Shown here piece by piece: positions 3,914 through 41,677 of a stretch of 64,000 bases of DNA (position 1 is the stretch's first letter; the number at the start of each line of letters is the position of its first letter). The DNA is from Squalus acanthias. Its lineage: Eukaryota. The position numbers and the translations under genes were made by a program. Where the stretch lies: NCBI GenBank assembly GCA_030390025.1, contig JASTWF010000034.1:1550001-1614000 (forward strand), in the 5' to 3' direction. The notes under the pieces were generated by a model. That model was not told the DNA's origin and ran no database searches. It saw only the letters and a program-made list of their open reading frames with translations.

Positions 3914-3914
3914 A

Positions 3915-7780: not shown

Positions 7781-7899
7781 ATTTCATTGTGTTATCCCAT
7801 AGTGTCAGTGAAAGCATCACCTCCGGCACGAACAGCGATCAGCGCGCTGCTGTACAGAGAGGGAGTCGGAATCTGAGAACAGGAGATTGGAATGTTACA

Positions 7900-8610: not shown

Positions 8611-8834
8611 CCCTTCTATTATTCCCATGCCCCTGCTCTTTTCCCATAGTGATGAAAATTGTTCCCCTTCAGGTACTTATCCAATTCCCCTTTTAAATTT
8701 ATTTTTTCCCTCTGTACCTCTCCCAGTCTTTCTGTCTCTCTTTTTATTTCTCTCTTTGTCTCTCTCCCCTCTTCTCTCTCTCCCCCTCTTCTCTCTCTGC
8801 CACTCTTCTCTCTCTCTCTCTGTCTCCTGCTGAT

Positions 8835-9210
8835 AGAATCATAGAACAGTACAGCACAGACCGGCACCATTTGGCTCATCGTGCCCGTGCCGTCTCTTTG
8901 AAAGAGCTATCTAATGAGTCCTACTCAATAGCTAGAGCCCTGTAAAAAATTCCCCTTCAACTAATTATCCAATTCCCTTTCAAAAGTTACTGTTGAATCT
9001 GTTTCTACCGCGTTCTCAGTCAGTGCATTCCAGAACACAACAAATCGCTGCGTAGAGCAAATTGTCCTCATCTCTCCTCCGGTTCTTTTGCCAATTACCT
9101 AAAATCTGTGCCCTCTGGTTACCCACCATTCTGCCACTGGAAACAGTTTCGACTTACTTACTCTATCAAATCCCATCATGATTTTGAACGTCTATATTAA
9201 ATCTCCCCTT
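8835..9210 (-). mobile_element. CR1 LINE 3' end fragment
   Basis: Tail atagaatcatagaa on the + strand. Mirror of 3915-4265. Confidence 0.7.
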
Positions 9211-11420: not shown

Positions 11421-12145
11421 CTTAACCTTCGCTGCTCTAAAAAGAACAATCCCAGCTTCTCCAGTCTCTCCACGAAACTGAAGTCCGAGATCCCTGGTAC
11501 TATTCTGGGCAATCTCCTCTACACCTTCTCTAATCCTTGACATGCTTGCCCAAGAAAGTGTTCAGAATTGGACACAATACTCCAGATGGGGACTAGCCAA
11601 TGATTTATAAAAGGTTAGCATTTCTTCCTGGATTTTGTTACTCTGTGTTTCTGTTTGTAAAGCCAAGGACTCCGTATTCTTTATTAACAGCCATCACAAC
11701 TTGTCCTGCCACCCTCAAAGATTTATGTAAGTACGTCCCAGGTCTGTCTGATCACGCACCCGCTTTAAAATCGTACCGTTTAGTTTATATTGCCTCTGCT
11801 CTTGCTTCCTACCAACATGAATCTCCTCACCCTTCTCTGTGTTAAATTGTATCTGCATGCGTCTGCCCATTTCACCAGTCTGTCTATGCTCTCCTGAAGT
11901 CTGTTACTTTCCTTCTCACTGTTTATTAATATTTCCGAGTTTGAAATTATGTGCTGTATACCGAAGTCCATGGCATTGCTATACAAGAAAGGAGCAACGG
12001 TCCCAACACCGACCCCTGCGGAACACCAGTGTAGACTGAGCCTGAAAAACAACCGTTTAACACTGCTCTCTGCTTTCTGTCTCTTAGCCAATTTCCGAGC
12101 CATGTTGCCACTGCCACTTTAATCCCATGGGCTTCAATTTAGGTA
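11421..12145 (-). mobile_element. CR1 LINE ORF2 fragment
   Basis: Minus strand RLQESIDRLVKWAD and ggtgttccgcaggggtcggtgttggga (GVPQGSVLG). Confidence 0.75.
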
Positions 12146-12615: not shown

Positions 12616-13129
12616 AGAAATGCATGTAATTAATTTTAGATACAACTCTTATATAACTCCCCACCACTCGAGCAATCTGTATCAGAAGATAACAAATGAC
12701 TTGAATGGAATGAAGCCGAGTCTTTGAGAGGCAAAGTCTTAATTCAATTCATCAGCAGGCTGTGACATTTCATATCTGTCGATGTCTGCAGACAATGGCC
12801 GAGCAATGTGTCTCGGGCGGTGGGTTAAACGGGTGGTATCGGATCGGGCGCCCGTTACACGCTGCGCCTGATATTCAGTTCCAATGCAGTCAATGACTGA
12901 TTTCTAGGCCTAGGACTTCAATTCTTAACACTAGTTTTCCAGCAAAGGTTTCTCCATAACTCAGTGAAGCCACTTCGTCAAAGAACAAGTCTCAGTAATC
13001 CTGCACCATCAACACCCCTGTGGATCCAAAATCCATGGTCCCCTGTTAAAAACAAACTCCATTCTGCCTCTTCTTAATTGTATAGCATGCAATGAACACC
13101 TAAACAAGAGGGCGGAGCCACAGTCAGTG

Positions 13130-14195
13130 AGACAGAAACATTCACACAGGCTTTTTAAAGAGACAGGACCAATCACACAGGCTTTCGAAAGAGACAGGAG
13201 TAGACACACAGGCTTTCGAAAGAGACAGGGCCTGACACACAGGTTTTTTGAAGAGACTGGTCCAATCACACAGGGTTTCTAAAGAGACAGGACCAGTCAC
13301 ACAGGCTTTTTAAAGAGACAGGGCCAGTCACACAGGCTTTTTAAAGAGACAGGGCCAGTCACACAGGCTTTTTAAAGAGACCGGACGAGTCACACAGGCA
13401 TATTTAAGAGACAGGACCAGTCACACAGGCTTTCTAAAGAGATAGGAGCAGTCACACAGGCTTTCTAAAGAGACTGGTCCAATCACAGAGGCTTTTTAAA
13501 GATACAGGACCAGTCCAACAGGCTTTTTAAAGAGAGAGGACCAGTCACACAGGCTTTCTAAAGAGACTGGTCCAATCACACAGGCTTTTTAAAGAGATAG
13601 GATCAGTAACACAGGCTTTCTAAAGAGACTTGTCCAATCACACAGGCTTTTTAAAGAGAGAGGACCAGTAACACAGCCTTTTTAAAGAGAGAGGGCCAGT
13701 CACACAGGCTTTCTAAAGAAACTGGTCCAATCACAGGCTTTTTAAAGAGATAGGACTAGTAACACAGGCTTTCTAAAGAGACTGGTCCAATCACACAGGC
13801 TTTTTAAAGAGACAGGACCAGTAACACAGCCTTTTTAAAGAGAGAGGACCAGTCACACAGGCTTTTTAAAGAGACAGGACCAGTCACACAGGCTTTTTAA
13901 AGAGACAGGACCAGTCACACAGGCTTTTTAAAGAGACAGGACCAGTCACACAGGCTTTCTAAAGAAACTGGTCCAATCACACAGGCTTTTTAAAGAGATA
14001 GGACCAGTAACACAGGCTCTCTAAAGAGACTGGTCCAATCACATAGGCTTTCTAAAGAGACAGGACCAATCGCACAGGCCTTTTAAAGAGACAGGACTAG
14101 TAACACAGGCTTTTTAAAGAGACAGGGCCAGTCACACAGGCTTTCTCAAGGGACACGTCTAGTCACTCAGGCTTTTTAAAGAGTCAGGACCAGCG
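13130..14195. repeat. Minisatellite, 31-bp unit aagagacaggaccagtcacacaggcttttta, about 34 copies
   Basis: Directly visible tandem array. Confidence 0.95.
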
Positions 14196-14289
14196 AGAAC
14201 GGATTTTTAAAAAGGCAAAGCCCTGCAAAGAAAAGGGCCTAGAAATTGTGATTTTTTAAATTCTTGAGTTTAATTCTGTTAAGTTAGTT

Positions 14290-14875
14290 AATAGTCTATT
14301 AAAAAGTGGCATGGCACTGCACCCCAGTCCCGTGGAATGCACATGTGGGTGCTCCAGGACACTTCCCATAGGTTTCGGAGCTTGAACAGCAGCTGGCATC
14401 ACTGCTGTGCATCCGTGAGGCTGAGAGCTACGTGGATAGCACGTTTCAGGAGGTGGTCACCCCGCAGTATACGAGTGTGCGGGCAGAGAGGGAATGGGTG
14501 AACGTCAGACAGACAAAGTGGACCAGGCAGGTAGTGCAGGAGCTCCCCTGAGTCTATTTCACTCTCTAACCAGTGTTCAATTTTCCCTCTGAGGAGTCCA
14601 AGTCCACGGTAACACGGGTGGTTCCGCTGTAGGTGGGGGAAGAGGAAGATCGGGAAAGCAATAGTGATAGGATATTCGATAGTTAGGGGAACAGACAAGC
14701 CTTTCTTTGCCCGCAGACGTGACTCCAGGATGAGATGTTGCCTCCCTGGTGCCAGGGTCAAGGATGTCACTGAGTGGCTGCAGAACATTCTGAGGGGGCA
14801 GGGTGAACAGACTGACGTCGTGGTCCATATCGGTATCATCGAAGTAGGTAGAAAGAGGGATGTGATCCTGCAGGC
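14290..14875 (+). mobile_element. CR1 ORF1 fragment (coiled coil plus SGNH esterase)
   Basis: IVIGYSIVRGTDKPF...CCLPGARVKDV...VVVHIG, homologous to ORF1 at about 18790-19757. Confidence 0.8.
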
Positions 14876-14899
14876 CGATTTTCCTCTTCATCCTCCTCC

Positions 14900-15581
14900 T
14901 CCTTCTCCTTCTCCTCATCCTCCTACTCCTCAGGTGGTGAACCAATCCCTGGTGGCAATGGCTGGGTCCTCATGATTGCAATGTTATGAAGCATGCAGCA
15001 CAAAACAATGAAGAGGGATACTCGCTCGGCTTCTCCTGAATGGTCCAGACACCGGAACCGTTGTTTCAAGACACGGATCGAGTGCTCAATGTGGTTCCTG
15101 GTGAAGTTATGGCTCTCATTGTATTGCAGCTCGGCAGGCGTGTTGGGGTTACGGAGCAGTGGCATCAACCAGGTGCAGAGTGGATAACCCTTTTCCCCGA
15201 GGAGCCATCCACTAGGTTGACACGGTGGTTGGAAGAGGTCTGCGAGACCGGTCTGGCGCAGGATAAAAGTATCGTGGCTGCTGCCAGCATAGCGGGCATT
15301 GACGGCGAGTATGAGCTGTCTGTGTTCATAGACCAACTGGACATTCAGAGAGTGGAAGCCCTTGTTGATGCGGAACATCTCTGCATTCTCATGAGGTGCC
15401 GAGAATACCACTTGCATGCAGTCAATGGCGATCTGAACTAAGGGGAAGCCCACTATCCTCGCACAGCCACATGCGCATTCATGCTGTTTGTCCCGGGTCA
15501 TGGGGAGAGATGTACTGGCGTCTCATCTTATAAAAAGCCTTTGTCACCTCCAGGATGCAACAATGAACAGCGAACTGGAAG
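14900..15581 (-). mobile_element. Harbinger/PIF (HARBI1-like) transposase, C-terminal half, degenerate
   Basis: GFPLVQIAIDCMQV, NKGFHSLNVQLV, GSSHDTFIL, LLGEKGYP, YNESHNFTRNHIEHSIRVLKQRFRCL, CCMLHN. Confidence 0.9.
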
Positions 15582-18500
15582 AACGTAAGAACATAGGTAC
15601 ATAAGAAATAGGAGCAGGAGTAGGCCAATTAGCCCCTCGAGCCTGCTCCACCATTCAATAAGAACATGGCTGATCTGATACTAACCACCAATCTACTATC
15701 ACAGAACCATCTCCTGAACGTAACAGAATTGGACACATGAAATAGGAGCAGGATCAGGCTACACAGCTCCTGGGCCCGCTACGCTACCCACAGGGCCATG
15801 ACCGATCCGAACCTAGACTCCTGTCCAAATTCCTGCCCGCTCCCCGTAACCCTTAATTCCCTTTACTTCTAGGAAACTGTCTATTTCTGTTTTAAATTTA
15901 TGTAATGATGTAGCTTCTACAGCTTTTTGGGGCAGCATATTCCATGGACCTACCAACCTCTGAGTGAAGTAGTTCCTTCTCATCTCAATTTTGAAAGAGC
16001 AGCCCCTTATTCTAAGACTATGCCCCCTAGTTCTAGTTTCACCCATCATTGGGAACATCCTCCCTGCATCCACCCGATCAAGCCCCTTCACAATCTTATA
16101 TGTTTCAATCAGATCGCCTCTCATTCTTTTTAACTCCAATGAGTAGAGTCCCAATCTACCCAACCTCTCCTCATATGTCCATCCCCTCATCCCCGGGATT
16201 AACCTAGTGAAACTTCTTTGTACTGACTTGAGAGCAAGTATGTCTTTTCTTAAGTATGCACACCAAACTGTATGCAGTATTCCAGGTGCGGTCTCACCAA
16301 TACCTTGTACAACTGAAGCAATACCTCACTATTTTTATATTCAATCCCCCTAGCAATGAAAGCCAACATTCCATTGGCCTTCTTAATCACTTGCTGCACC
16401 TGCATACTAACCTTTTGAGTTTCGTGCACCAGGACCCCCAGATCCCTTTGTACTTCAGTACTTTCCAGTTTCTTGCCATTAAGATAATAACTTGCTCTAC
16501 TATTTTTCCTGCCAAAGTGCATAACCTCACACTTTCCAGTATTGTACTCCATCTGCCAAATCTCTACCCACTTACTTAGCCTGTCTATGACCCCTTGGGG
16601 ATTTTTTATGTATTCCTCACTCACTACTTTCCCTCCCATCTTAGTATCATCTGCAAACTTTGATATGTTACACTCGGTCCCCTCCTCCAAATCGTTCATT
16701 TTGATTGTAAAGAGTTGAGGACACAGGACTGACCCCTGCGGAACACCACTAGTTACTGATTGCCAGTCTGAAAATGAACCATTTATCCCAACTCTAAGCC
16801 TTCTGTTAGATAGCCAATCCTCCATCCATGCCAGAATATTACCCCCAATTCCGTGATTTTTTATCTTAAGCAATAATCTTTTGTGTGGCACCTTGTCAAA
16901 TGCCTTTTGGAAGTCTAAATACACCACATCCACTCGTTCACCTTTATCCACCCTGTATGTTACTTCCTCAAAGAACTCCAGCAAATTTGTCAAACATGAC
17001 TTCTCCTTCATAAAACCATGCTGACTTTGTCCTATTAAATTATGATTATCCAAATGTCCCGTTACTGTCTCCTTAATAATGGACTCCAAAATGTTACCTA
17101 CCACAGATGTTAGGCTAACCGGTCTATAGTTTCCCGCCTTCTGTCTACTACCCTTTTTAAATAAGGGTGTTACATTAGCAGTTTTCCAGTCTGCCGGGAT
17201 CTTTGCTGAGTCCAGGGAGTTTTGGAAAATTACTACCAATGCATCCACAATCCCTACCGCCACTTCCCTCAAGACCCGAGGATGTAAGCCATCAGGTCCA
17301 GGTGATTTATCCGTCTTGAGTCCCATTATTTTACCGAGTACCACTTCCTTAGTGATTTTGATCGTGTTTAGCTCCTACCCCCCTATAGCCCCCTGTTGGT
17401 TCAGTGTTGGGATATTCTTAGTGTCCTCTACTGTAAAGACTGATACAAAATATTCATTCTGTGTATTTGCCATCTCCATATTTCCCACCATTAATTTCCA
17501 GGTCTCATCCTCTAAGGGACCAACATTTACTTTAGCCACCCTTTTTCTTTTTATATAACTATAAATATTCTTACTATCTGTTTTTATATTTTTTGCTAAT
17601 TTACTTTCATAATCTATCTTCCCTTTCTTAATCAATCTTTTTGTTATTTTTTGCTGTCATTTAAAGTTTTCCCAATTCTCTATCCTCCCACTAGATTTGG
17701 CTACCTTATAAGACCTTGTTTTTAGTCGAATACTATCCTAAATGTCTTTACTTAGCCACGGAAGACTGTCTTTTCTTTCACAACCTTTTCTTCTCAGTGG
17801 AATAAATATTTCTTGGAAATTGTAAAATAACTCCATAACTGTACACCACTGATCATGTATCGTCTTACCCTTTAATCTATTTTCACAATCCTCACTTCTC
17901 AATTCCGCTCGCATTCCTTCATAGTATCCTTTATTCCAGCTTAGCACACTTGTTTGAGATCCAACCTTCTCACCCTCTAATTGAATATGGAATTCAACCA
18001 TGTTATGATCACTCATTCCAAGGGAATCCTTTACTAGGACATTTTTAATTAATCCTGTCTCGTTACACAGGACCAGATCTAAGGTTGCTTGCCCCCTGGT
18101 TGGTTCAGTTACATACTGCTCAAGAAACCCATCCCTAATACACTCAATGAACTCATCCTCAAGGCAGCCCTGCCCAATTTGATTTGTCCACTTAATATGA
18201 TAGTTGAAATCCCCCATAATTATAGATGTTCCCTTATTACAAGCCTCAACTATTTCCTGATTGATACTCCTTCCAACAGAGTTGCAAATGTTCGGAGGCC
18301 TATAGACTACGCCCACTAGTGTTTTTTCCCCTTATTTTTCCTTATCTCCACCCAAACTGTTTCATTATCCTGATCTTTTGACCCAATATCATTTCTCTGT
18401 ATTACAGTGATTCCTTCTTTTATTAACATGGCCACCCCACCTCCCCTTCCTTCCTGCCTGTCCTTCCTGATCGTTAAATAACCTGGTGTGTTTAATTCCC

Positions 18501-20548
18501 AGGCATTGTCACCTTGCAGCCATGTTTCTGTAATGGCCACAAGATCGTACCCATATGTAGATATTTGTGCCATTAACTCGTCTATTTTGTTACCAATGCT
18601 ACGTGCATTCAGATAGAGAACTTTCAAATATGTTTTGTGATACTTAGTTCCTGCTTTTGCCCTTTTTATTACTTTAGCTTTTACTCCATACCTTGTGCCC
18701 CTTCCTGACACACTCTGGTATTTAATTTCCCCACTGCTACCTAAGTCTATGACCTTCTCTGTTGTCATTTTTATTATTTGCTCTCTAGGAACCTCCCCCC
18801 AACTAGTTAGTTTAAAGCCCTTTCTACAGCCCTAGTTATATGATCCGCCAGGACTCTAGTCCCAGCACTGGCCAAGTGAAGCCCGTACCAACGGAACAGC
18901 TCCCTCCTGCCCCAGTACTGGTGCCAGTGCCCCAGGAAGCAAAACCCATTTCTCTCACACCAGTCTTTGAGCCACTCATTTAACTCTCATTTTATTTGTC
19001 CTAGCCAAATTCGGTCGTGGCTCAGGTAATAATCCAGAGATTATTACCCTTGAGGTTCTGTTTTTTAATTTGAACCCTAGCTGCTCATAATCCTTTAACT
19101 GAACCGGCTTCCTTGTCCTATCTACGTTGTTTGTACCAACAGGGACCACGACAACTGGATCCACCCCCTCTACTGCAAGTTTATTTGCAGCCCAGAGGAG
19201 ATGTCCTTAACCCTGGCACCGGGCAGGCAACACAGCCTACGGGACTCTCGCTCTCGGCTGCAGAGAACTCTATCTATCCCCCTAATAATACTATCCCCTA
19301 TCACTAGAACATTTCTATTTACTCCCCCCTCTTGAATGGCCCCCTGTCCCACAGTGCTGTGGCCAGGTTGCTCATCCTCCCTGCAGTCCCCGCTTCCGTC
19401 CCCACAGGGAGTAAGAGCCCCGAACCTGTCGGACAAGAGCAAGGGCTGCGGCTCCTCCAACACTACCTCCTGGATCCCCGTACCTGCCTCACTCGTAGTC
19501 ACATCGTCCTGCCCCTGACCATGGGCTACATCTGAATTAATTAACTTCATAGGTGTGACCACCTCCTGAAACACAAAGTCCAGGTACTTCTCCCCCTCCC
19601 TGATGTGTCGCAGTGGCCGAAGCTCAGACTCCAGCTCATCAACACGGAGCTGGAGTACCTGTAGCAGCAGACACTTGTCACAGATGTAATCACCGTGAGC
19701 CTCAATGGGTTCCACCGGCTCCCACATCTCGCAATAGTAACACATCACCTGCTCCATTCTATGTAATTAATTAAATTTTTGATTGTTAGTTATGGACACT
19801 CTCTGCCCGATTATAGATGCCAGTATCCCCTCTAATTAATTGGATTTAAATTAAATCAATCCCTCTAAATTACACCAGTTAAATCTTTTACCAACAGTCA
19901 CTCTCCACCAGAAAGGCATTATTAACTACAACCCACAGAGTTTAAGTTTAAAATGTGAGAAATACTCACCAACCAATTACTTACCTGCTTTCTGGTGACG
20001 TCACACCTCGATTATTTTTACCTCTCTCCCTCCCTCAGAGTTCGGAGACTGGTCCCGCCTTACCTGGTCTCTGGAGACTTTTAAACCCTCTGCCGCCGCC
20101 TCGCCTCACGCAGGTCCGCCGCCGCAGCAGGAAGCTGACAAAGATGGAAAAAGGAAGGCACACCTCCCTCCCTGAACTCCCTCACTCACCAAACTCGCAG
20201 CTTAGCACTCTGTTCCAAATCTGGACTCCGTGACAAACTGCACTCTAGTCTCCCATATTTATACTGCTGAGATTTAAATAAGTGAGCTATCTGGCAGTTA
20301 CAGAACGAGATTAGACCAGTTAATTAATTAATTGCTATCACCTGCTCTCCAGCACAGAGCAGGCTTAGCCCTGCCAAAGCCTGGAAGAAACTTAAAACTT
20401 GAAACAGTAAATTTAAATGCTAATTGCAAGCACACAAGACTAGAATTTATAAAAAATTATAAAAATAAGAGATTAACCTTTAAGATTTACTCCCTCACTC
20501 ACCAAACTCGCAGCTTAGCACTCTGTTCCAAATCTGCACTCCGTGACC
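15582..20548 (-). mobile_element. Near full-length CR1 LINE (5' UTR, ORF1, ORF2, 3' tail) with several disablements
   Basis: ORF1 from 19757: CxxC...CxxC, leucine zipper, GDSIIRGID/GARVKD esterase. ORF2 from 18768: endonuclease YLNARS, ITETW, GDFN, SDH; RT YLDFQKAFDKV, PQGSVL, KFADDTK. 3' tail of aagaacat-type repeats at 15582-15610. Confidence 0.95.
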
Positions 20549-20850
20549 ATATTCAATATGTCCCCAGTAGAAGCCTGAAAGGAACCGCTGACTTAGAAAT
20601 TCAGAGCCATTGTCACCTTCACTGCCACCGACAGAGATGTCCTGGTCCTGAGCGGAGGCTGCAGATCTGGTTGCAGGAGGCGGCAGAGCTCAGTGATCAC
20701 CTCATTGCTGAAGCACAGCCTTTGGAAACACTGCTCCTCTGACAAATGGATATAGGAGGATCATTGCTCCCTGAATACCATGGGAGGGGTAGGTCTCATG
20801 TGCAGAGCCCTGTTGGCCCTACTCCCTCTTGCCATTCACTCTCTGCGACG
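20549..20850 (-). mobile_element. Harbinger transposase N-terminal part; continuation of 14900-15581
   Basis: Reverse complement matches 63040-63345; aagcctgaaaggaaccgctgacttagaaattcagagcc is identical in both. Confidence 0.85.
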
Positions 20851-21657
20851 TTAGGTGGCATTTGCCTGTGGGATAAGTCGTCTGATTTCGATGCTGACAA
20901 ATGCACTTAGTGGGGCATTACCTGGTCAATCATAACTATTTACCTTAATTCAGAGTCCATTATATGCAATGTTACTTGGCAAATCTTCCTTTCAATCAGC
21001 TTATAAGTTGTGTATTTCAACAAAAATGCAGAAAACACAATCTTCAAAACATATCTGATAGCCCAGTTATCTTTCTAACTGCAGTGCAGTTGTATTTATT
21101 ATTATCTTAGCATTGTCATATTACATCCGTACATTTTACATACAATTGCCTGTAATTATTGCACGCCAACGTTGCAGTTTCTGTATTTTGCTGTTGCATT
21201 CATTTTCAGTTCTATATATAATGGATATTCTAACCAGGAGCAGGAATCCAAGCGGGATTTCCCACTCCCCTAACACAGGGGCACAGAAGCGAATTTCACC
21301 ACTCCAAATGCTGACTGATCCCGGGATACGAAGCCTTCCTGAGAGGTTCCGGTCCTTTGTGTCCCTGGTACCTCGGGCGGTGCTTTTGTCTGCTGGGCTA
21401 AAGTTCGATCGATCATTTAATCTCTCCGTCATCAAATATCTGTTAATTTGCTATTGTATTTATTCCTATTACAGTTATTGATTCCACAATGCATTTCCGA
21501 TTATTCTTCTCCTGTATTCAGTTCCACAGGTATTAGAATTAGATTATTTCATTGAATGTCGGTAATGAGTTGCAGAATTCAGCCCGAATTCCATCAAACT
21601 GCTGCTTTTGCTCCCAGCCTGATGTATAATGTCCCTGTTTATTTCCCTTCCTCACAG

Positions 21658-22559
21658 TTAACTTAGTGACGGTTGTGATCCTGTCTCAGGGAAAGTGCGG
21701 TCTCTCCAAATGTGTCACTCGCTACCTGGTGGCCATGGCAGCGGCGGATCTACTGGTCGTTATCCTCGACCTGATATTGAGGCACATTCCCATTGTTTAT
21801 TGGGAACAATTTTATTTCGTGGTGTACATCCCCGTGTGTAATATCCACGCCGTCCTACTTTATGCAGCCACAGACTGTTCAGTCTGGTTCACCGTCACTT
21901 TCACCTTTGATCGATTTGTGGCCATTTGTTGCCAGAAGCTGAAAACTAAATATTGCACCGAGAAAACGGCGGCTGTGGTTCTGGGAACAGTGACTGTGCT
22001 GAGCGGTTTAAAGGACATCTCCTGGTATTTTATGATCACAAATCGGTATAGGCTTCTGAACGACCCCTGGTTTTGTGAGTTCACAAACGATGTTCTGTAT
22101 TCACGGGTCTGGGCATCAATCGAGTTCCTCCATTATATTCTCACCCCGTGTGTCCCATTTGCAGTGATTCTGCTGCTCAATGCTGTCACCGTTAGACACA
22201 TTTTAGTGGCCAGCAGAGCCCGCAGGAGACTCCGGGGTCCCAGCAGTGGGGAGAGTCCCAGAGATCCAGAGATGGCGAGCCGCAGGAAATCCATCATTTT
22301 ACTGCTTGTTATCTCCGGCAATTTCATCCTGTTATGGGCAGTGTTTATGGTGTTTTCCATATCGTGGCGGATGTGGAATTTGGGGTATCAGTCTGTATAT
22401 CTACCAGTTTATGTACAGGAATTGGGATTCATGCTGCAGCTGCTGAGTTGCTGCACAAACACTGGTATTTACACCGTGACCCAGACTAAGTTCAGAGAGC
22501 AGTTGAAGAATGTGGGGAAATATCCCTTTACTCTGATTGTAAAATTCATTAAAGGATGA
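21658..22559 (+). CDS. GPR139-like: Gene B exon 2: TM1 end to TM7 and C-tail of a GPR139-like class A GPCR (spliced protein 360 aa)
   Basis: Acceptor tttcccttcctcacAG ends at 21657; frame open to TGA at 22557-22559. Motifs MAAADLL (TM2), C..HAVL (TM3), TFDRFVAIC, ECL2 Cys (PWFC), LLW (TM6), NTGIY (TM7) and KFR helix 8. Confidence 0.93.
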
Positions 22560-22614
22560 GAAGAAGCGGAGACTTTGCAGTCTGAGTGTTGACAGTTCCC
22601 TGGGCCTGATATTG

Positions 22615-23980
22615 TGTCGCCCGCACAAAGATGTCGGCTCTGGGGCCCAGCACGAAAATGGCGGCTCCGGTGCCCGTACAAAGATGGCGGCACCCGCGTC
22701 CCGCACAAAGATGGTGGCACTGGGGAAACGCACAAAGATGGTGGCTTCGGGGCCCGTCCAAAAATGGCGGCAGACGCGTCCCGCACAAAGATGGCTGCTC
22801 CGGTGCCCGTCTCAAATTTGGCGGCTCCGGGGCCCATCACAAAAATGGCGGCTCCCGCGTCCCGCACGAAGATGGCGGCATCCGCACCCAGTACAAATAT
22901 GGCGGCTCGGGGGCACCGTACAAAGATGGCGGCATCCGCGTGCCGCACAAGGATGGCGGTTCTGGGGCATCGCACAAAGTGGGTGGCACCCGGGCCCAGC
23001 ACAAAGATGGCGGCTCTAGGGACTCCGCACAATGATGGCGGATTTGGGGACTCACAAAGATGTCAGATCTGGGGATCCGCACAATGATGGCGGATCTGGG
23101 GACCCGCACAAAGATGGCGGATTTGGGGACACGCACAAAGATGGCGTCTCTGGCGCCCCGCACAAAAATGGCAGCTCTGGGAAACCGCGCAATGATGGCG
23201 GCTTTGGGGCCCCACAAAACATGGTGGCACCCGCGCTCCTCACAAAGATGTAGGCACTGGGGCCCAGCACAAATATGTCGGTACCCGTGCCCCGAACAAA
23301 CATGGCGGCTCTGCGGCCTCGTCCAAAGATTGTGGCACTCGCGCCCCGCACAAAAATGGCGGCTCTGTGACCGAGCACAAATATGGCAAAACCCGAGCGC
23401 AGCACAAATATGGCGTCACCTTGGCCCAGCACAAAGATTGCGGCAACCGCGCACCGCACAACGATGGCAGCACCCTCGCCCAGCACAAAGATGGCGGCTC
23501 TGGAGCCCTGCACAAAGATGATGGCCCTGGGGACACGCAGAACGATGGCGGATCTGGGGACCGCACAAAAATGGCCGCATACGCACCCCGCCCAAAGTTG
23601 GCTGCACAGGCGCCCCGCGCAAAGATGGCGTCTCTGGCGCCCCGCCCAAAGATGGTGGTACAGGCGTTCAGCACAAAGATGGCGGCTCTGGCGCCCCGCA
23701 AAAAATAATGCAGTCTCTGCCCCCCCCCCACCCCACAACGCCCAGTACAATGATGGCGGCACTGGGTCATCGCACAAAGATGGCAGCTCCGGCGCCCCTC
23801 ACAAAGATGGCGGCTCTGGGGTGCTGCACATAGATGGCGGCGCTGGGGCTCTGCACAAAGATAGCTGCGCTGGGGCTCCGCACAATGATGACGTCTCTGG
23901 GGCCTCACACAAAGTTGGCGGCTCCTGGGATCCGCTCAAATTTGGCGGCTCTGGGGCCCTGCACAAAGATGGCGGCTCTC
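22615..23980. repeat. CpG-rich minisatellite, 27-28-bp unit gcacaaagatggcggctctggggcccc, about 50 copies
   Basis: Directly visible; gives 9-aa periodic pseudo-ORFs (HKDGGSGAP). Confidence 0.95.
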
Positions 23981-24295
23981 ACTCGGGGAATTTCCCCGGC
24001 GGCGGGCGGCGAATGTTCGGAGGGCGGCAGCAGTTGTAGGCTCGGTTAAAGTGAGAGCGGTCGGCGAGGTGGAGCAGCCCGGGTCCGCCCAGTCCACAGG
24101 GGCCCGAGCAACCCAGCCCGGGGAGGAGGAGGCCCGGCACAAGGACTTTATTAATCATTATAACCCTTTATAATGCTTTAAAATCACTACACCACTTTAC
24201 AGTTCTTTTATAACCCTTTATAAATGATTTTGAATATTAATAAAACATTATGAGGCTTTATAAATCATTATGACACTTAATAAATCATTTTTAAA

Positions 24296-24706
24296 ATTCA
24301 TTCCTGTAATGTGGGCGTCGCTGCCAAGGCCAACATTCTATTGCCCATCCCTAATTGCCCTTGAGAAGGGGGTGGTGAGCCGCCTGAGGCAAGCGAGTGT
24401 CTTGTGGGCCATTTCAGAGACCAGTTAAGAGTCAACCACATTGCAGTGGGTCTGGAGTCACATTTCAGCCAGACCAGGTGAGGACGGCAGATTTCCTTCC
24501 CGAAAGCCCATTAGTGAACCAGATAGGTTTTTTACGAAAATCTGGTACTTTCATGCTCACTGTTACATGACACTAGCTTTTTATTCCAGATTTGTTTCAT
24601 TGATTGAATTTAAATTCCCCAGCTGCTGGGAATATGAACTCTGGATCATTTGTCCAGGAATCTGATTTACTAGTCCAGTAACATAACCACTATGCTACCG
24701 TACCCT
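24296..24706 (-). mobile_element. HE1-like tRNA-derived SINE
   Basis: The reverse complement starts gggtacggtagcatagtggttatgttactggactag (A box), has gagttcatattccc (B-box-like) and ends gggcaattagggatgggcaata...gaatgaat. Family name is from recollection of elasmobranch HE1, not from a search. Partial mirror copy at about 58238-58490. Confidence 0.7.
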
Positions 24707-24709
24707 TCA

Positions 24710-24920
24710 AATATATCGCCGTTCCTTCATCGTCATTTGTCAAAAGCCTGAAAATGCTTCTGTACCAGTATTGTGGAAGCACCTTCACCACACGGACTGC
24801 AGCGGCTCAAGATGAAGGCCCACCATTTGCACATGGGTAACTCGGGATGGGCAAGTGATATCGGCCTTGACAGCGTTACCCATATCCTGAGAACAAATGC
24901 ATAGAAATAATAAAATAGGA
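24710..24920 (+). mobile_element. HER1-type LINE 3' end
   Basis: ccttcaccacacggactgcagcggctcaag...gggatgggca matches 57165-57240. Confidence 0.7.
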
Positions 24921-25164
24921 TTAAATTCAATGATTTTATAATTCATTGATTTAAACCAGGCGAGGCCTGTGATCAGAGCGGGGCGTCAAGTACGCTAAAC
25001 AAATTGTCAACACCACTTGGATCACTAATTTTATGGTTGTATGATTGATACTACTCATATTTTCCCAATTTCCCTCTCCTTAGAAAAGGTGCTTGATAAA
25101 GTATCACATATTACCAAAATTGAAGCCCATTGGATTAAAGTGGCAGTGACAACATTGAGTGTCA

Positions 25165-26500
25165 TGGGATATATCAGTATGTAAGAGAGGATTAAAATGT
25201 GGGGGATATCAGAGTGCTACAGTGAGGGGGTTGGTATATATCAGAGTGTTACAGTGAGGCGTATGGGGTTTATCAGCATGTTGCGGTGAGCTGTGTGGGG
25301 TATGTCAGTGTTACAGTGAATGGTGTGGGATATATCAGAGTGTTACAGTGAGGGGTGTGGGGTATATCAGCGTGTTACAATGAGGGATGTGGGATATATC
25401 AGTGTGTTACAGCGCGGGGTGCGCCGTATCTCAGAGTGTTAAAGTGCGGTGAGTAGGGTATATCGGTCTGTTACAGTGAGAGGTTTGGAATATGTAAGAA
25501 ATGATTAAAATGAGGGGTAAATCAGAGTGTTAAAGTGAATGCTGTGAGCTATATAAGAGTGTCACAGTGAGGGGTGTGGGATATATCAGAGTATTATAGT
25601 GAGAGGTGTGGGGTATTTCAGTGTGTTACAGTGAGGGGTGTGGGGTATATCAGAGTATTACAGTGAGGGGTGTGGGGTATATCAGAGTGTTACAGTGAGG
25701 GGTGTGAGGTATATCAGAGTGTTACAGTGAGGGGTGTGGGGTATATCAGAGTATTACAGTGAGGGGTGTGGGGTATATCAGAGTATTACAGTGAGGGGTG
25801 TGGGGTATATCAGAAAGTGTTACAGTGAGGGGTGTGAGGTATATCAGAGTGTTACAGTGAGGGGTGTGGGGTATATCAGTGTTACAGTGAGGGGTGTGGG
25901 GTATATCACAGTGTTACAGTGAGGGGTGTGGGGTTTATCAGCGTGTTGCAGTGAGAGGTGTGGGATTTATCAGAGTGTTATAGTGAGGGGTGTGGCATAT
26001 ATCAGACTGTTACAGTGAGGGGTGTGGGGTATATCAGAGAGTGTTACAGTGAGGGGTGTGTGGTATATCAAACTATTACAGTGAGGGGTGTGGGGTTTAT
26101 CAGCGTGTTGCAGTGAGAGGTGTGGGATTTATCAGAGTGTTGAAGTGAGAGGTGTGGGATTTATCAGAGTGTTACAGTGAGGGCTGTTCGGTATCTCAGT
26201 GTGTTACAATAAGGTGCGTGGGTTATATCAGTGTGTTACATTGAGGGAATTGGGGTATATCAGAGTGTTAAAGTGAATGGCATGGGGTATATCACAGTGT
26301 TACATTGAGGGGTGTGGGGTATATCAGAGTGTTAAAGTAAGGTGAGTGGGGTATATCGGTCTGTTACCGTGAGAGGTTTGGAATATGCAAGAAAGGATTA
26401 AAGTGAGCGGTACATCAGAGTGTTAAAGTGAATGGTGTGGGGTATATCACAGTGTTACATTGAGGGGTGTGGGGTATATCAGAGTGTTACAGTGAGGTGA
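25165..26500. repeat. Minisatellite, 32-bp unit atcagagtgttacagtgaggggtgtggggtat, about 40 copies
   Basis: Directly visible; homogeneous core at about 25560-26200 with diverged edges. Confidence 0.95.
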
Positions 26501-26539
26501 GTGGTCCATTACTCTGTATCTAACCCACGTGTACCTGCC

Positions 26540-26676
26540 TGTTCCAATGAAAGGTCAACGACCTGAACCGTTAACTCTGTTTCTCTCTCTACAGAAGCTG
26601 CCTGACCTGCTGGGTATTTCCAGCATTTTGTGTTTTTACTTCAGATTTCCAGCATCCACAGTATTTTGCTTTTGTG
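26540..26676 (+). mobile_element. Solo Penelope-type terminal repeat with a decayed hammerhead motif
   Basis: aaggtcaacgacctgaaccgttaactctgtttctctctct...gctgcctgacctgctgggtatttccagcattttg matches the termini of the 34987-37577 element. Confidence 0.75.
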
Positions 26677-26720
26677 CGTCTGCCTGGAATTGTGTGAATG
26701 GACAGGATTGAGGGCCCTTT

Positions 26721-27545
26721 AAGAACATAAGAACATAAGAACATAAGAAATAGGAGCGCAGTATGCCATTTGGCCCTTCGAGCCTGCTCCGCCATTCAAT
26801 ATGATTATGGCTGTTCTTCTACCTCAACTCCAGTTTCCTGCACTATTCCCATATCCCTTGTTTCCTTCAATATTCAAAATTCCATGGAGCTCTGTCTTGA
26901 ATATACTCAACGACTAAGCGTCCACAACCCTCTGGACTAAAGAATTCCAAAGATTCACCACCCTCTGAGTGAAGAAATGTCTCCTCATCTCAGTCCTAAA
27001 TATCCGACCCTTATTCTGAGACTGTGACTCCTGGTTGTAGAATCCCCAGCCAGGGGAAACATCCTCCTTGCATCTATACCTGTCAAGCCCTGTAAGAATT
27101 TTGCTTTTTTTCAATGAGATCACCTCTCATTCTTCTAAATTCTCGGGAATATAGGCCTAGTCTACTCAATCTCTCCTCATAGGACAATCCCCCCCATCCC
27201 AGGAACCAGTCCGGTGAACCTGCGTTGCACTCGCTCTTTGGCAATTATATCCTTCCTTCGGTAAGGAGACCAAAACTATACACAGTACTAAAGGTGTGGT
27301 CTCACCAGGGCCTTATATAATTGCAGTAAGACGTCTTTACTCTTATACTCAAATCCTCTTGGAATGAAGGCCAACATACCATTTGCTTGCCTAATTGTTT
27401 GCTTTACCTGCAGGTTAGCGTTCAGTGATTCGTGTAGAAGGACACCCAGGTCCCTCTCAACACCAACATTTCATATTCTCTAACCATTTAAAAAATACTC
27501 TGCTTTTCTATTTTTCCTACCAAAGTGGATAACTTCATATTCAAA
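26721..27545 (-). mobile_element. CR1 LINE 3' fragment
   Basis: aagaacat-repeat tail at 26721-26750 and FRTEMRRHFFTQRVVNLWNSL. Mirror remnant at 57850-58235. Confidence 0.85.
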
Positions 27546-29532
27546 CCACATGTTTCGTCCACGTAAGATATTAGAATATTAATCACAATGCAACCAGACA
27601 ATCAACAAATATAAAGTGCTGTAGTTCTTTAATTCGCAGTATTAAAAAGAACTGAACAAAATGGGTATCCGTATTTTCAACTTCAATCACTTCCATTAAT
27701 AAATGTTGCATTCTTGAACTAGCACTCCAACCATGTAACATGTCAGAAATGCAGCACTTAAATCCCAAGTGTAGAAAAACACATACAGAGTTTGTGTCAC
27801 TGAATTAAAAACAAAAAGCAGGAAAAGCTATGATTTAACAGAAATAAACATTTGTCTTTCTTCCTGGACAGGAGAACCAGTCAGACTGACTTGGAAATGT
27901 TTACTCATATGTTGACGTGAAGATTTATAATTTACCAATTTAACTTCTAATGTTTTTCTCTCAAACATTCTCCACAATATTAATCCCTGCTCTTATCACG
28001 AAAAGTGATGAATTGTTTTAGCTAATTCGCAATTAAAAGCGGGAAACAAACGACATTGTACTCTCAATTTTTAATCTCCTATTTCAAACATTCAAACCAA
28101 ATCGAATTGTACGTTATCAGTTTAATCAAAGCATTTTCTGTGTCTTTCTCAATAAACAAAGAGTGGTTTCTTCTAAAGTAGCTTCCTGCAATTTTTATAC
28201 ATCATTACATAACTCTTGTTTCTATTAACACTCCACTAAATGTTTAAGAAGAAATCTATATTTACATTAATCCTGCGACTTGCTAGGACTATGGAACACA
28301 GAAAAAATAAAATGGTTTGTGTTTTTCCCATTTTTGGTTCTCTTCCTAAATGTCTTAATGGTATATTTTTAAAAAGTCATTAAAAATTAATATGTAACTC
28401 CTACAAATCCTCCCCTGCCCTCCCCAGCCTCAACACCATAGTTGCATGTATGTGTAAAGCTACTCACTTCACTTGATCACTCAAACTCTAATATTGAGAA
28501 ACTTCAATTTTAAAAATTTTAAGCATTTCAGAGCCTCTTTGAATGCGTTTGGACTTCAAGAGCTGGTTGAAATTTGTTTAGGTGAGGGGAAAATTGGCTT
28601 TTGCTTCAGTATCTTCCAAAATCATATTCGAAACTTAGGGGGAAAAAGTGTTTTAATACACATTTTTTGTGAAAAGTTCGTTAAAAATCTTTAAACTCTT
28701 TCAAGTTTAATTGCAGCTTTGGCAGAAGAAGTTGCTCCAAGTTTCTCTTTCCCCCTTCAATGCTGTCGTTAAACATACGACAAAATATAATAAAATAAAG
28801 TCTGATTCCAAACGGAGCACAAATCAGAAAGTGAATAAAGTGATTAAACTTCCCAAGAAGGTGGTGAGGTTATCTCTCCCCAGACTTGGCGATGAGTTGG
28901 GAGCAATTTTTGGAGATGTTGTTTCCTGTTTTTCTGCTGCCGTCCCTCCGTCTCTCAGGCTCTGAGGTACAAACGGGGGCACAAACGTTTTCCCCTCTCT
29001 CGCAACATGAATTAAATAACCCTGATAAACTTTTCAAAAAGGGGACGAGCCCTGGCAAAATTGAACTGGAACTTACCACGAAATATTCAGCATCACTTTC
29101 CCATGTCCCTTTCCGGCTTTAAATAATTTTCTGAATTAAAAAAAAAATTCTCATACTTTTGTTTCACCGCGGTGTTAAAACAATGTTTGCTTTCACCTCC
29201 TTCCAGCGGCCACTATATACGCGCTGCACCTCCGCCTGTGTTGTTGCAAATTAAGGCCGCCGGTCAGTTCCCAGGAACGGACTACACGCGTCTCCGCGGA
29301 AAAAGTACTGAAACAATCCAGAGGCAACGCTCGCCGGTTTCCAGGACTCCGTATCTCAGCAAATGTTGTTCCAATTCGGATCGGCTCTGTGAGTTCACAA
29401 ACGGCTCTGTGAGGATTCGCGGGTCATTGGGTATTAGGCCTCTCTGCCCGCTCCTGCTCACTGCGCCGCCTGTGAATTTCAGTGCGCGGGACCTTACAGA
29501 TCGCCGTGCACCCACGCACCTTACAGGGAACA

Positions 29533-29700
29533 TTGCTCAGCAGGTCAGGCAGCATCTGTTGTGGGAGAAACAGAGTTAATGTTTCAGGTCGATGGCATTT
29601 CATCAGAACTGGGAAATTTATGATGTAACAGATTTTAAGCAAGGACAGAGGCAGGGAAAGGGTTGAATGGAAGGAAAGAACAAAAGGGAAGGTCTGTGTT
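29533..29700 (-). mobile_element. Solo Penelope-type terminal repeat with a hammerhead-like motif (29574-29610)
   Basis: ctcagcaggtcaggcagcatctg...gagttaatgtttcaggtcgatggcatttcatcagaact. Same ancestral insertion as 54895-55040. Confidence 0.75.
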
Positions 29701-30600
29701 GTACCTGTCCTGGGTGTATTTGGCGGGATTGGGTAGCAGGAGCTTTACTCGTGATGTACTTACCTTGGGAGAATTTGCTGGCACAGTGCAGAGGGATATT
29801 TACCCAATACCTAACAGGTGCTGCACCTGCTGTGGAAATGTTTGATGAGTCAGTGTAGAAGTAGATTTAACCTGTATCTAACCCATGCTGTACTTGCTCT
29901 TGGAGTATTTGATGGGGCAGTGTAGAGGGAGCTTTAAGCTGTATCTAACCCATGCTGTACCTGCTCTTGGAGTATTTGATGGGGCAGTGTAGAAGGAACT
30001 TTAATCTATTACATTACATAGTATTTACAGCACAGACACAGGCCATTCGGCCCAACAGGTCCATGCCGGTGTTTATGCTCCACACGAGCCTCCTCCCACC
30101 CTACTTCATCGCACATCCTTCTATTCCTTTCTCCCTCATGTAGATATCCAGCTTCCCCTAAAATGCTTCTATGTTATTCGCATCAATTACTCCATGCGGT
30201 AGCGAGTTCCACATTCTCACTACTCTCTGGGTAAAGATGTTTCTCCTGAATTCCTTGTTGGATTTATTAGTGACCAACTTATATTGATGGCCATTAAATC
30301 ATCAAAGCCCTGTACCTGCCCTGGGAGTGTTTGATGGGACAGTGCAGAGTGAGTTTTACTCTTTATCTAACTGGTGTTATACCTGACCTGTTTGATGTGT
30401 GTTTGATGGGGACAGTAAAGAGCGAGATTCACTCGGTATCTATCGCGTGCTGTACCTGCCCTTGGAGTGTTCAATAGGTCTGTGTAGAGCAAGCTTTACC
30501 CTTTATCTAACCGGTGCTGTAGCTGACCTTGGAGTGTTCGATGGAGCATTGTAGAGGGAGTTTTACTCTGTACCTAACCCGTGGTTTACCTGCCTGTGAG
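29700..30600. repeat. Degenerate tandem repeat of about 65 bp (tgtacctgccctgggagtgtttgatgggacagtgtagagggagctttactctgtatctaacccgtgc), interrupted by a CR1 3' fragment at about 30010-30300
   Basis: Recurring unit visible; mirror copies at 53880-53985 and 54760-54890. Confidence 0.8.
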
Positions 30601-31760: not shown

Positions 31761-32269
31761 CCACCATCTGCCCCCTGGTATACTACACCGCATTAAACTC
31801 CCTCCACCCCCACCCCCATAATACTGCTGCATACTACATCACCTCGTGAAGCTCCCCATATGAAACTCCCCATTTGGTCTCCATCTATAATTTGTCCAGC
31901 TTCGAAATGCCACGTTTAAGCCCCCTGTAAATTCCACCCACCTGTATAATTCCCCTCGCTTATCTCCTCCCCCCACCCTGTATAATTGATCCTAGCTCGC
32001 TGTACACTTCGCCCTGAATATCTCTCCCTCTGTGAAACTCGTTCCTCCCTCCCCCTTGGCGAAAGTCCACATCCACCCGGTATAAGACCTCCATATATCT
32101 CAATCCATGTATAATCCCCCCCCCGCGCCCTATCAATCTCCCTCCCCCTGCTGGTGAAACCCCATTTTGCCCCTTGTGTGACTCATTTAACTGGTGTGGC
32201 TTGAAATCCCGACCTTCGTTAATTTGGTTTAATTCATGTCCAGACAATCACAAACTCTGTAAAATACTC

Positions 32270-32605
32270 CCTCGCACGAAGCATAAAATGTGTCCCCCCC
32301 CCTCCACCCACCAAAGACAAATTGGGTGCCCGCACCCCCGCACCAAGCACAAAATGTCTTCACCCCCCCCCCTCGGCGCCAAAGACAAAATTGTTTCACC
32401 CCCACCACCCCCCCGGCACCAGCACCAAAGACAAAATGGGTGCAACCCCGCACCAAGCACAAAATGGCTTCACCCCCCCTGCACCGAAGACAAAATGGGT
32501 GACCCCCCCGCACCAAACACAAAATGGGTGCCCCCACCCCCCACACCAAGCACACAATGGGTGCCCCCCCCCCCCACGCACCAAGCACAAAATGGCTGCA
32601 CCCGC
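32270..32605. repeat. Short minisatellite, about 30-bp unit gcaccaagcacaaaatgggtgc(C)n
   Basis: About 11 visible units. Confidence 0.85.
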
Positions 32606-34986: not shown

Positions 34987-37577
34987 AAATAAAAACAGGA
35001 AATGCTGGAAATACTCAGCAGGTCAGGCAGCATCTGTGGAGAGAGAAACAGAGTTAACTTTTCAGGTCGATGACCCTTCGTCAGAACTGGAAAAAGATAG
35101 AGATGGAACAGGTTTTTAAGCAAGTGCAGGGGCAGGGAAAGGGGGGAGGGGAGGAAAGAACAAAAGGGAAGGTCTGTGATATGATGGAAGGCAGGAGAGA
35201 TGAAGAGACATTAAGAGAGATAAAGAGATGGTGCAAGGCAAAAGGAGATGGTAATGGGACAAGTTAAGAAACAAAGGATGGCTCTAGATGAAGCGCAAAT
35301 TGCACTGGCAGAATGAAAGACAGCTGCCATGAAACAGAGGGAAAAAAAGAAAAAAAATGATTGGGGCAGAGGTCATGTTCTGAAATTGTTGAACTCTATG
35401 TTGATTCCAGAAGGCTATAAAGTGCCCAATCGAAAGATGAGGTGCTGTTCCTCGAGCTTCCGTTGAGATTCATTTAAACAGTGTAAGAGACCGAGAACGG
35501 TGAGGTCAGAGTGGGAGTGGAGCGGTGAATTAAAGTGAGAGGCGACCGGAAGCTTGGGGTCACACTTACGGATTGAATGGAGGTGTTCCGCAAAGCGGTC
35601 ACCCAATCTGTGTTTGGTCTCCCCAATGTAGAGGAGACCGCATCGTGAGCAGCGAATACAGTATACTAAATTTCAAGGAGTACAAGTAAATTGCTGTTTC
35701 ACCTGGAAGGAGGATTTGGGGCCCTGGACAGTGGGAAGGGTGGATGTCAAATGTATGTGTTGCATCTCCTGCGCTTGCACGGGAAGATGCCGGGTGAAGG
35801 GGAAGCAGTGTTGGAGGTGATAGAGGAGTGGACCAGGGTGTCTGGAGTGAGCGGTCCCTTCGGAATGCTGAAAGGGAAGGTGAGTGGAAGATGTGTTTGG
35901 TGGTGGGATCACGCTGGAGGTGGCGGTAATGGCGGAGGATGATCCGTTGAATGTGGAGGCTGGTGGGGTGAAATGTGAGGACAATGGGAATACTATCGTA
36001 GTTCCGGGAGGGAGGGGAAGGGGTGAGAGCAGAGGTGCAGGAAATACAACGGACATGGTCAAGGGCCTTGTCAACCACAGTAGAGGGGAATCCTCGGTTG
36101 AGGAAAAAGGAAGGCATGTCGGAAACACTAATGTAGACGGTGGCATCATCAGAGCAGATGCAGTGGAGGTGGAGAAACTGGGAGAATGGAATAGAGCCCT
36201 TACAGGAAGCGGCGTGGGAGGAAGTGTAGTCCAGGTAGCTGTGGGAGTCAGTGGGCTTGTAGTGAATCTTTGTCAATAGCATATCCCCAGAGATGTAGAC
36301 GGAGAAGTCGAGGAAGGGAAGAGAAGAGTCGGAGATGGACCATGTGAAGGTGAGAGTAGGGTGGAAATTGGAAGCAAAGTGAATGAAATTTTCTAGTTCT
36401 GAGCGAGAGCAGGAAACAGCACCGATACATTCATCGAAGTACCGGGAAAAAAGGTGAGGGTGGGGACCTGAGTAGGACTGGAACAAAGAATGTTCCACAT
36501 ATACCACGAAAAGGCAGGTATAGCTAGGACCCATGCGGGTTCCCATAGCAACACCTTTAATTTGGAGGAAGTGAGTGGAGTCAAAGGAAAAGTTGTTCAA
36601 TGTGAGAACAATTTCAGCCCAGCGGAGGAGGGTGGTGGTGGATGGGGACTGGTTGGGCCTGTGTTCAAGGAAGAAGCGGAGCGCCCTCAGGCCATCCTGG
36701 AGGGCGATAGAGGTGTAGAGGGATTGGACGTCCATAGTGAAAAGGTTTGGTTGGGGCCAGAAAACTGGAAAGTGTTAAATTGAGTGAGGGCATCGGGAGA
36801 GTTGCGGATGTGGGTGGGAAGAGACTGGACAAGGGGAGAAAAAATAGACGAGATAGGAAGAGATAAGTTCCGTGTGGCAAAAACAGGCTGAAACGATGGG
36901 TCTCCCAGGGCAGTCCTGTTAGTGGATCTAGGGAAGGAGGTAGAAGCGGTCTGTGCGGTGTTGGGGCACTATGAGGTTGGCGGCCGTGGAGGGAAGATCT
37001 CCAGAGGAGATGAGGTCAGTGACGGTCTTGGAAACGATGGCTTGATGTTCGGTAGTGGGGTCATGGACCAGGCGGAGGTACGGGGTTGTGTCAGCGAGTT
37101 GGCGTTCAGCCACCGCTTGTTAGAGGCCGGTTCGCCAAACAATCACAGCACCACCCTTGTCAGCACGTTTACTGACAATGTTGGAGTTGGATCTGAGAGA
37201 ATGGAGTGCTGCAAGTTCAGAGGGAGGTAGGTTAAAGTGAATGAGGGGAGCAGAGCCGGCCGATGTCACGCCGGCAGTTTGCAATGAAAAGATCTCGAGA
37301 GGTTAAGGTAGAACGAGAATTGTGAAAACGGGAGAAAGGGTCAGCTGTGCGGGGGGAAGACCCCTGGCCAAAGAAGTGGGCACGGATGCGAAGGCAGCGG
37401 AAAAAGAGCTCAGCATCGTGCCGAGCTCGAAATTCATTCGTATGGGGGCGTAAGGGGATTAGGCTCAGGCATTTGCTACCTCCGTCCTTCCCACCGATGC
37501 TGCCTGACCTGCTGAGTATTTGCTGCATTTTCTGTTTTTATTTCAGATTTCCAGCATGCGCAGTATTTTGCTTTTGT
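34987..37577 (-). mobile_element. Penelope-like retroelement (RT plus GIY-YIG endonuclease), frameshifted, with inverted terminal repeat and 15-bp TSD
   Basis: RT: MDVQSLYTSI, QIKGVAMGTRMGPSY, RYFDE, PFLD, YKPTDSHSYL. Endonuclease: VYCIRCSRCGLLYIGET...RFAEH...VASHFN. acctttctgattctg flanks both ends (34972-34986 and 37578-37592). 34987-35035 is inverted relative to about 37495-37545. Confidence 0.92.
35052..35088 (-). ncRNA. Minimal type I hammerhead ribozyme motif in the Penelope 3' terminal repeat
   Basis: AGUU-CUGACGA-A-GGGUC-AUC-GACCU-GAA-AAGU-U-AACU: both core boxes, stem II and a 4-bp stem I are present; the stem III palindrome is mutated. Confidence 0.65.

Positions 37578-41646: not shown

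Positions 41647-41677
<31 letters not shown>

Follow-up and report, generated by a model that had tools for sequence, protein, structure and literature searches.

A degenerate 27-bp minisatellite with YY1 consensus sites lies behind duplicated receptor genes of the shark Squalus acanthias

Results

The receptor genes and their surroundings

The window (the whole stretch of 64,000 bp that was analysed) contains three receptor genes, A, B and C. Gene B is intact and lies on the forward strand. Its first coding exon (7900-8080), located by tblastn with the N-termini of homologs, encodes the N-terminus, with glycosylation-type repeats, and the start of TM1, and a start codon further upstream is possible. 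The second (21658-22559) matches Pfam 7tm_1 (E = 3.7e-17), and the two exons spliced give a protein of 360 amino acids with a single terminal stop (22557-22559) and no internal one. Exon 2 has 2315 homolog clusters, the best 120 of which are 56-82% identical to it, all labelled as shark (Heptranchias, Pristiophorus, Heterodontus, Rhincodon and Scyliorhinus are among them) and named 'probable G-protein coupled receptor 139'. This name is an automatic label; Pfam gives a rhodopsin-family 7TM receptor and nothing narrower. In a literature search that took in few subscription journals we found no description of this shark receptor family.

Exon 2 of gene C (59091-59992, reverse strand) is an inverted segmental duplicate of that of B, with 91% identity; no exon 1 of gene C was found within the window. 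Self-comparison of the window matched pieces of 20549-29825 to 63346-54757 at 82-90% (the B/C duplication) and 1678-4760 to 8300-11448 (the A/B duplication). The three genes stand as inverted duplications, A/B head-to-head and B/C tail-to-tail, gene A (4993-5288, reverse strand) being a head-to-head copy of exon 1 that has an in-frame stop near its end and its B counterpart at 7852-8080 (forward strand). A 14-residue (42-bp) repeat of variable copy number, with an N-glycosylation-type motif, is found in the N-terminal part encoded by the first exons of A and B, and many homologs have it too. ORFs at 14942-15575, 62898-64000 and 20549-20834, which we take to resemble fragments of Harbinger-type transposases, lie in the first intron of B and probably also of C. 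TRF reported no 26-bp array ahead of exon 1 of A or B. Tandem arrays longer than 300 bp make up 19% of the window, and between genes B and C lie a CT-rich tract of 3.5 kb (38236-41787) and a 56-bp array (43699-45870) that is young and homogeneous (pairwise divergence 0.10).

Structure and borders of the array

A 60-bp spacer (22560-22619, forward strand), which is common to gene C, separates the stop codon of gene B from the array under study; homology between B and C runs over 20854-22616 at 89%. The array (22620-23979, forward strand) was delimited by TRF and alignment as a degenerate 27-bp minisatellite of about 50 units with the consensus CCCGCACAAAGATGGCGGCTCTGGGGC, TRF giving a period of 27, 50.8 copies and 68% matches. 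Its short units of fixed period run head-to-tail, and it is a minisatellite in the usual sense of a tandem repeat with units of 10-60 bp. The original prediction, of some 50 units of 27-28 bp beginning about 55 bp past the stop, was right about the array and its unit number; the unit is 27 bp long and the array begins 60 bp 3' of the gene B stop. Among 49 intervals measured from core to core, 42 are 27 bp long, four are 26 bp, and one each is 28, 25 and 74 bp, the longest marking a disrupted unit (23695-23741, forward strand) in which a poly-C run occurs and which breaks the array. Uniform wraparound alignment gave 50 full units, from which the 49 with at least 50% identity to the consensus were retained, and two types of unit tail (33/49 and 16/49) are intermixed along the array.

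Downstream lie a GC- and CpG-rich non-repetitive tail (23980-24140, forward strand), also common to C, and an AT-rich block (24141-24300, forward strand) with a 20-bp repeat. The AT-rich block adjoins the poly(A) end of an antisense retroelement, the 3' part of a SINE/LINE-type element (24301-24558, reverse strand) whose tail matches 57197-57303 behind an RT-like ORF. Judging from titles and the openings of abstracts, again in a search that took in few subscription journals, we found no description of the array in the literature on the shark receptor family, shark satellites or YY1 repeats.

YY1 sites and CpG content

We scored YY1 sites by published consensus rules (PMC1904287, PMC2665242) instead of a weight matrix, and the unit consensus of array B holds a complete site. 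That many units contain a YY1 core was correctly foreseen: the two 11-mers singled out at the time, AAGATGGCGGC (eight occurrences) and AAAATGGCGGC (four), fall in 12/49 units, with 13 occurrences across the whole window on both strands, and the unit motif agrees with the YY1 consensus as given in the accessible text of PMC1904287. Exact matches to CGCCATNTT number 18 in the array, all in a single orientation, versus four in the remaining 62.6 kb. Under the more permissive rule of PMC2665242, 34 sites fall on one strand of the 1.37-kb array, versus 0.58 per kb elsewhere. On its sequence, array B counts as a region of clustered YY1 motifs, with at least three in 500 bp in the same orientation. 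No CTCF pattern occurs in array B. Since the roughly 50 copies represent one event amplified, the fair measure of chance is that for the founding unit. In 200,000 shuffles of the 27-mer, CGCCATNTT arose with P = 4.6e-4, and the full 11-bp consensus has P = 7e-5 in a shuffled unit, both before correction for testable motifs and arrays.

The array carries 79 CpG per kb versus 22 per kb elsewhere in the window, and its observed/expected ratio is 0.82 (window 0.46, exon 2 0.63). The original prediction of a CpG-dense array in a CpG-poor region thus stands for the array and was overstated for its setting, values of 0.78-0.86 occurring in four further 1-kb bins. Taken together, the end of the exon, the array and the tail of gene B make up a CpG-island-like block (22451-24250, without strand; GC of at least 55%, observed/expected of at least 0.65, length of at least 500 bp), and the 3' end of C (58551-59250) has the same sequence properties. 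Only three places in the window pass GC of at least 55% and observed/expected of at least 0.65 over 500 bp: the two receptor 3' ends, of B and of C, and a block at 36601-37500, the sole CpG-island-like one in the window that is not at a receptor 3' end.

One explanation of these observations is that the array is a selected, methylation-gated YY1 element of the Peg3 kind, standing 3' of a receptor subfamily, from which YY1 loops to the promoter or clusters the paralogs, and in which unit number or methylation sets which copies are expressed. We regard this as possible but rather unlikely. The full consensus in the unit, the single orientation, the 18 exact sites and the CpG-island-like block at the matching place in both genes all argue for it; the behavior of the motif within the unit is divided.

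Conservation of the motif within the unit

The check proposed at the outset was whether the motif core is better conserved than the rest of the unit, and the answer varies with the measure (p = 0.02-0.11). With the tail types separated, the eight fixed YY1 positions show a mismatch of 0.112 versus 0.190 for the rest (permutation p = 0.021, cyclic rank 2/27); by parsimony, p is 0.054 and the rank 7/27. The 11-bp core compared with the rest gives p = 0.10-0.11, and its CpG half shows no effect (p = 0.60). Parsimony changes per column are 2.8 for CACAA, 3.75 for ATGG and 6.2 for GCGGC, the unit mean being about 6.19; the best-kept block of the unit is CACAA, of which a single column in five belongs to the YY1 consensus. 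The contrast between the best 9-column window and the mean (0.63) is similar to that in five control arrays (0.33-0.79). For a selected element speaks the fact that ATGG and AA are conserved while no core column varies as much as the free N position, and intact YY1 units (17/49) exceed the 9.7 expected at the non-motif rate. Against it, the CACA rate would lead one to expect 20.7 intact units, the CpG half of the motif is kept no better than the unit average, intact sites drop along the array (8, 6, 3), and a variant breaking a T needed for YY1 binding, according to the accessible text of PMC1904287, recurs in 6/49 units of B and 2/5 of C.

The motif CpG is lost in 18/49 units, 13 of them via TpG/CpA; TpG/CpA stands at the motif CpG in 13/49 units and at the other CpG of the unit in 5/49 (p = 0.066), a hint that the motif CpG may be methylated and unprotected in the germ line. 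Across the array, CpG transitions (0.076-0.086 per base versus 0.053-0.106 for other C/G) reveal no overall hypermutability. This would suit a selected element, but the B-C flanks also have little CpG excess (a comparison of measures that do not strictly correspond). CpG retention is therefore a poor guide to methylation and no proof that it is lacking. Taken together, the signs in the sequence that array B is being kept for a regulatory job are weak.

Array C, age and the direction of length change

The corresponding array of gene C (58805-58938, reverse strand) has five units (TRF 4.9 copies; nhmmer with the B profile, E = 8.8e-16), in agreement with the original prediction of five units there and about tenfold more in B. 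Between spacer and array, C has about 100 bp of its own (109 bp at 58954-59062, reverse strand) that are absent in B and are skipped by contigs of three runs, from organisms A (5 contigs), G (1) and H (1), which pass from the spacer to the array start.

All 49 units of array B are distinct, with a mean pairwise divergence of 0.31 and a nearest-neighbour divergence of 0.16, and it is the most diverged of the six arrays compared (units of 27-56 bp). No 31-mer is repeated within it, and unit distance by lag (8.15-9.03 versus 8.48 overall) places neighbours no closer than distant units. Array B is not a hypervariable VNTR of near-identical units; the predicted copy-number variability holds between paralogs (50 versus 5) and fails in the sense of a homogeneous, actively turning-over VNTR. 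Between B and C the divergence is 9% in exon and intron, 12% in the far flank and 17% in the 3' flank. As unit divergence (31%) exceeds B-C divergence (9-17%), array B would be older than the B/C duplication, assuming equal mutation rates. The units of C find their matches, with 2-8 mismatches, inside array B and not simply at its ends. The length gap therefore probably reflects contraction in C and not growth in B; what was described as a tenfold longer array in B is better taken as a loss of units in C. That C retains an open exon 2 despite an array of only five units also counts against a selected element.

Linkage to the gene and occurrence elsewhere

In a run search, 5 of the 20 runs listed hold at least half of the query words, and none of the 20 is an RNA run holding them. 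We aligned the contigs of four of these 20 runs to the gene end of C at 80% likeness and made no use of the other runs with small shares. Organisms G and H stem from a single study, and H contains 6% of the B-region words. In one 2,166-bp contig from organism H, letters 1-296 correspond to the coding end and spacer and letters 1979-2166 to the AT-rich block. This leaves 1,682 bp between gene end and AT-rich block, where B has about 1,530 bp and C has 405; a long array presumably fills the interval. In a second organism H contig (792 bp), array units run into the GC-rich tail. Contigs of G and H thus link the spacer to units and units to the tail, apparently in the position seen in B and C, although such contigs fix neither orthology, array length nor species identity; as the same flanks are joined to units in both organisms, the cassette of spacer, array, tail and AT-rich block seems to exist beyond the source genome. 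The array seems, from these junctions, to be a gene-linked cassette duplicated with the receptor subfamily, which lends some support to a selected element as well. Of the predicted attachment to each receptor gene, we can uphold attachment in at least this subfamily, with the same flanks in B, C and the contigs of two other organisms; 'each' goes beyond these data. Contigs show loose ends at C's counterpart of the AT-rich block, and poly(A) loose ends of the antisense SINE/LINE-type element occur at 58476 in hundreds of contigs.

It is also conceivable that the array is a dispersed satellite or transposon-internal repeat that landed behind an ancestral gene and has most of its units elsewhere. 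Several observations fit this: (i) contigs that match two places number 688/13,525 in organism A (run X1) versus 29/19,830 and 45/20,189 in organisms G and H; (ii) 89 contigs of organism A extend beyond the end of C's array as more units of the B consensus; (iii) repeats of other animals carry YY1 motifs, according to the accessible portions of PMC11602158 and PMC10760456; and (iv) a two-unit pattern, absent (0 matches) from viral contigs and prokaryote genomes, matched two metagenome contigs, which carry the 15-bp core in units at the 27-bp spacing that the search pattern imposed, have another tail and lack a receptor gene. Nevertheless, we consider a dispersed repeat unlikely. Within the window the B unit profile has a significant match only at gene C, the immediate array flanks match only as the B/C pair in the self-comparison, and no terminal repeats were noticed by eye. 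The extra organism A units, moreover, may be long paralog arrays or copies elsewhere, between which contigs cannot tell.

The two metagenome contigs match neither the masked window nor the receptor, and we took theirs as an independent repeat instead of the same family, only the 15-bp core being in common. Both are AT-rich (L001, 3001-3165; L002, 70-205). Two to three tandem 27-bp units in them bear the 15-bp YY1 core, and behind these comes a palindrome that contains a pair of inverted YY1-like cores. Within the window, a more degenerate array of about 10 units (32269-32603) has the ACAAAATGG core in common with the YY1 array, mostly without the CpG of the latter; homology of the two was rejected as unproven (E = 1.0 versus 0.72 for a reversed control).

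Summed contig depth, which is not copy number and cannot rank the parts of the locus, is 1.56 million in the best array bin of X1, 2,481-224,038 in coding bins and 643-3,728 in the 3' flank; in X13 and X16, with the same limits, it is 13,000-20,000 in the array versus up to 70,000 and 47,000. Run X11, which is guessed to be RNA and may hold DNA, covers coding and array bins, and its array cover may stem from other copies. In one X11 contig, 118 of 353 letters align with the gene end and no other piece is listed, which hints weakly that the 3' sequence could differ in some paralogs.

RNA and coding roles

As predicted, AATAAA lies downstream of the array at 24239, with a twin at 24279, and array B may fall within the 3' UTR. 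We also weighed the possibility that the array acts at the RNA level in a long 3' UTR, through structure, stability or protein binding, or that it encodes a 9-residue repeat. The array does lie between the stop and the first AATAAA after it, which is kept in both B and C, and the 27-bp period is a multiple of three. On the other hand, an AATAAA is expected by chance (41% of shuffles of the AT-rich block contain one), and no contig bridging stop and array is among the listed contigs of X11. Folding gave no signal (mean z 0.05-0.23 in 10 windows, on both strands, for RNA and DNA), on which ground a hairpin model for the array was dropped, and Rfam returned no match. Units of 25, 26 and 28 bp break the frame, codon periodicity is absent, and true protein relatives were not found, two word-index searches giving 0 matches. 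Roles of this kind are accordingly very improbable. An exhaustive search gave 45 matches to the array translation; the seven inspected were rejected as unrelated repeat proteins, four of the seven scanned having DUF7666. These (P0121-P0127) are metagenome proteins with a 9-residue tandem repeat, several with DUF7666, which matched the array translation by period alone.

Discussion

We favor, with a probability of roughly 0.55, the possibility that the array is a co-duplicated passenger minisatellite that forms a CpG-island-like 3' block and could bind YY1 if unmethylated. A plausible scenario is that, in an ancestral gene of the shark subfamily, a 27-mer with a YY1 consensus at the 3' end was amplified in tandem, and that the array was then copied with the gene by segmental duplication, as is seen for B and C and as the contigs suggest for other species. 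Unit divergence shows that homogenisation ceased long ago and that the units now decay by point mutation; paralogs would have changed in length by deletion or unequal exchange, C probably losing most of its units. Each of genes B and C has been left with a CpG-island-like block behind it, and by analogy with mammalian YY1 the 18 intact sites of B should bind the protein when unmethylated; the array would be mainly a passenger and not a selected switch. Our reasons for favoring a passenger are the age of the array, its place in a gene-linked cassette, the weakness of selection on the motif and the repeat-rich setting. The case is weakened by the better-kept fixed YY1 positions, by the surplus of intact units, by N being the most variable position and by the long interval in another species, which implies long retention.

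A bolder idea is that 3' YY1 arrays of a large shark receptor family serve as methylation-gated switches or clustering anchors, array length and methylation choosing the paralog that is expressed. It leans on the precedents of olfactory receptors and protocadherins, and we think it quite improbable. Overall, the YY1-motif array is real and of an ordinary kind, and the chance that it has a regulatory role is small though testable. As a passenger it would be a modest example of repeats that accompany genes through duplication and give rise to CpG-island-like blocks; it could also serve as a marker of subfamily history. If YY1 does bind and methylation gates it, the array would offer a testable handle on the regulation of a many-copy shark receptor family (2,315 homolog clusters) and would mean that clustered YY1 control elements are not confined to mammalian imprinting and X inactivation.

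There is precedent for arrays of this sort. The fingers of YY1 are highly conserved across animals and its binding is methylation-sensitive (PMC1904287, the accessible text of which does not mention sharks), and the original prediction was on firm ground in citing this sensitivity together with Peg3, both being in print (PMC1904287, PMC4196374, as far as their accessible text goes). According to the accessible parts of PMC4196374 and PMC2665242, the Peg3-DMR has about 10 YY1 sites in 2.5 kb of a first intron beside the promoter, with binding, allele-specific methylation and a deletion phenotype all demonstrated. It resembles array B in having the YY1 consensus within a degenerate tandem repeat, a CpG in the motif and many sites beside a gene; the shark array differs in having 18 sites in 1.4 kb past the stop of a multigene family member, and in being known from sequence alone. 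Known arrays of the selected kind sit at promoters or first introns, not past the stop, whereas array B lies 14.7 kb downstream of exon 1 (beyond 5 kb from the start). Given this position and the kind of data in hand, we have not filed it as a Peg3-type element.

Other likenesses, drawn from the accessible portions of the sources cited, are looser. In mouse L1 Tf, promoter monomers occur at 3-4 per copy in the 5' UTR of a retrotransposon, with function established by reporter assay and EMSA (PMC11602158); as in the shark, each tandem unit has a methylation-sensitive YY1 site and unit number varies among copies, but the shark unit has 27 bp and lies 3' of a host gene. On the X of the fish Poecilia picta, YY1-bearing transposon repeats have undergone a dispersed, recent expansion, for which no effect on genes close to the motifs was found (PMC10760456); there too YY1 motifs were multiplied by repeats and are tied to methylation differences, whereas the shark repeat is old, tandem and gene-linked. 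The DXZ4 macrosatellite is likewise a tandem repeat with methylation-dependent YY1 association, but it has 3-kb units, lies on the mammalian X and has had binding shown (PMC3287207). Finally, shark genomes are described, in the accessible text of two reports, as enriched for simple tandem repeats in GC-rich tracts and rich in tandem gene duplicates (10.1101/2022.10.17.512540, 10.1101/2025.06.08.657570). Five other long arrays in the window liken array B to such ordinary GC-rich minisatellites, from which it is set apart by the greatest divergence and by a complete transcription-factor consensus.
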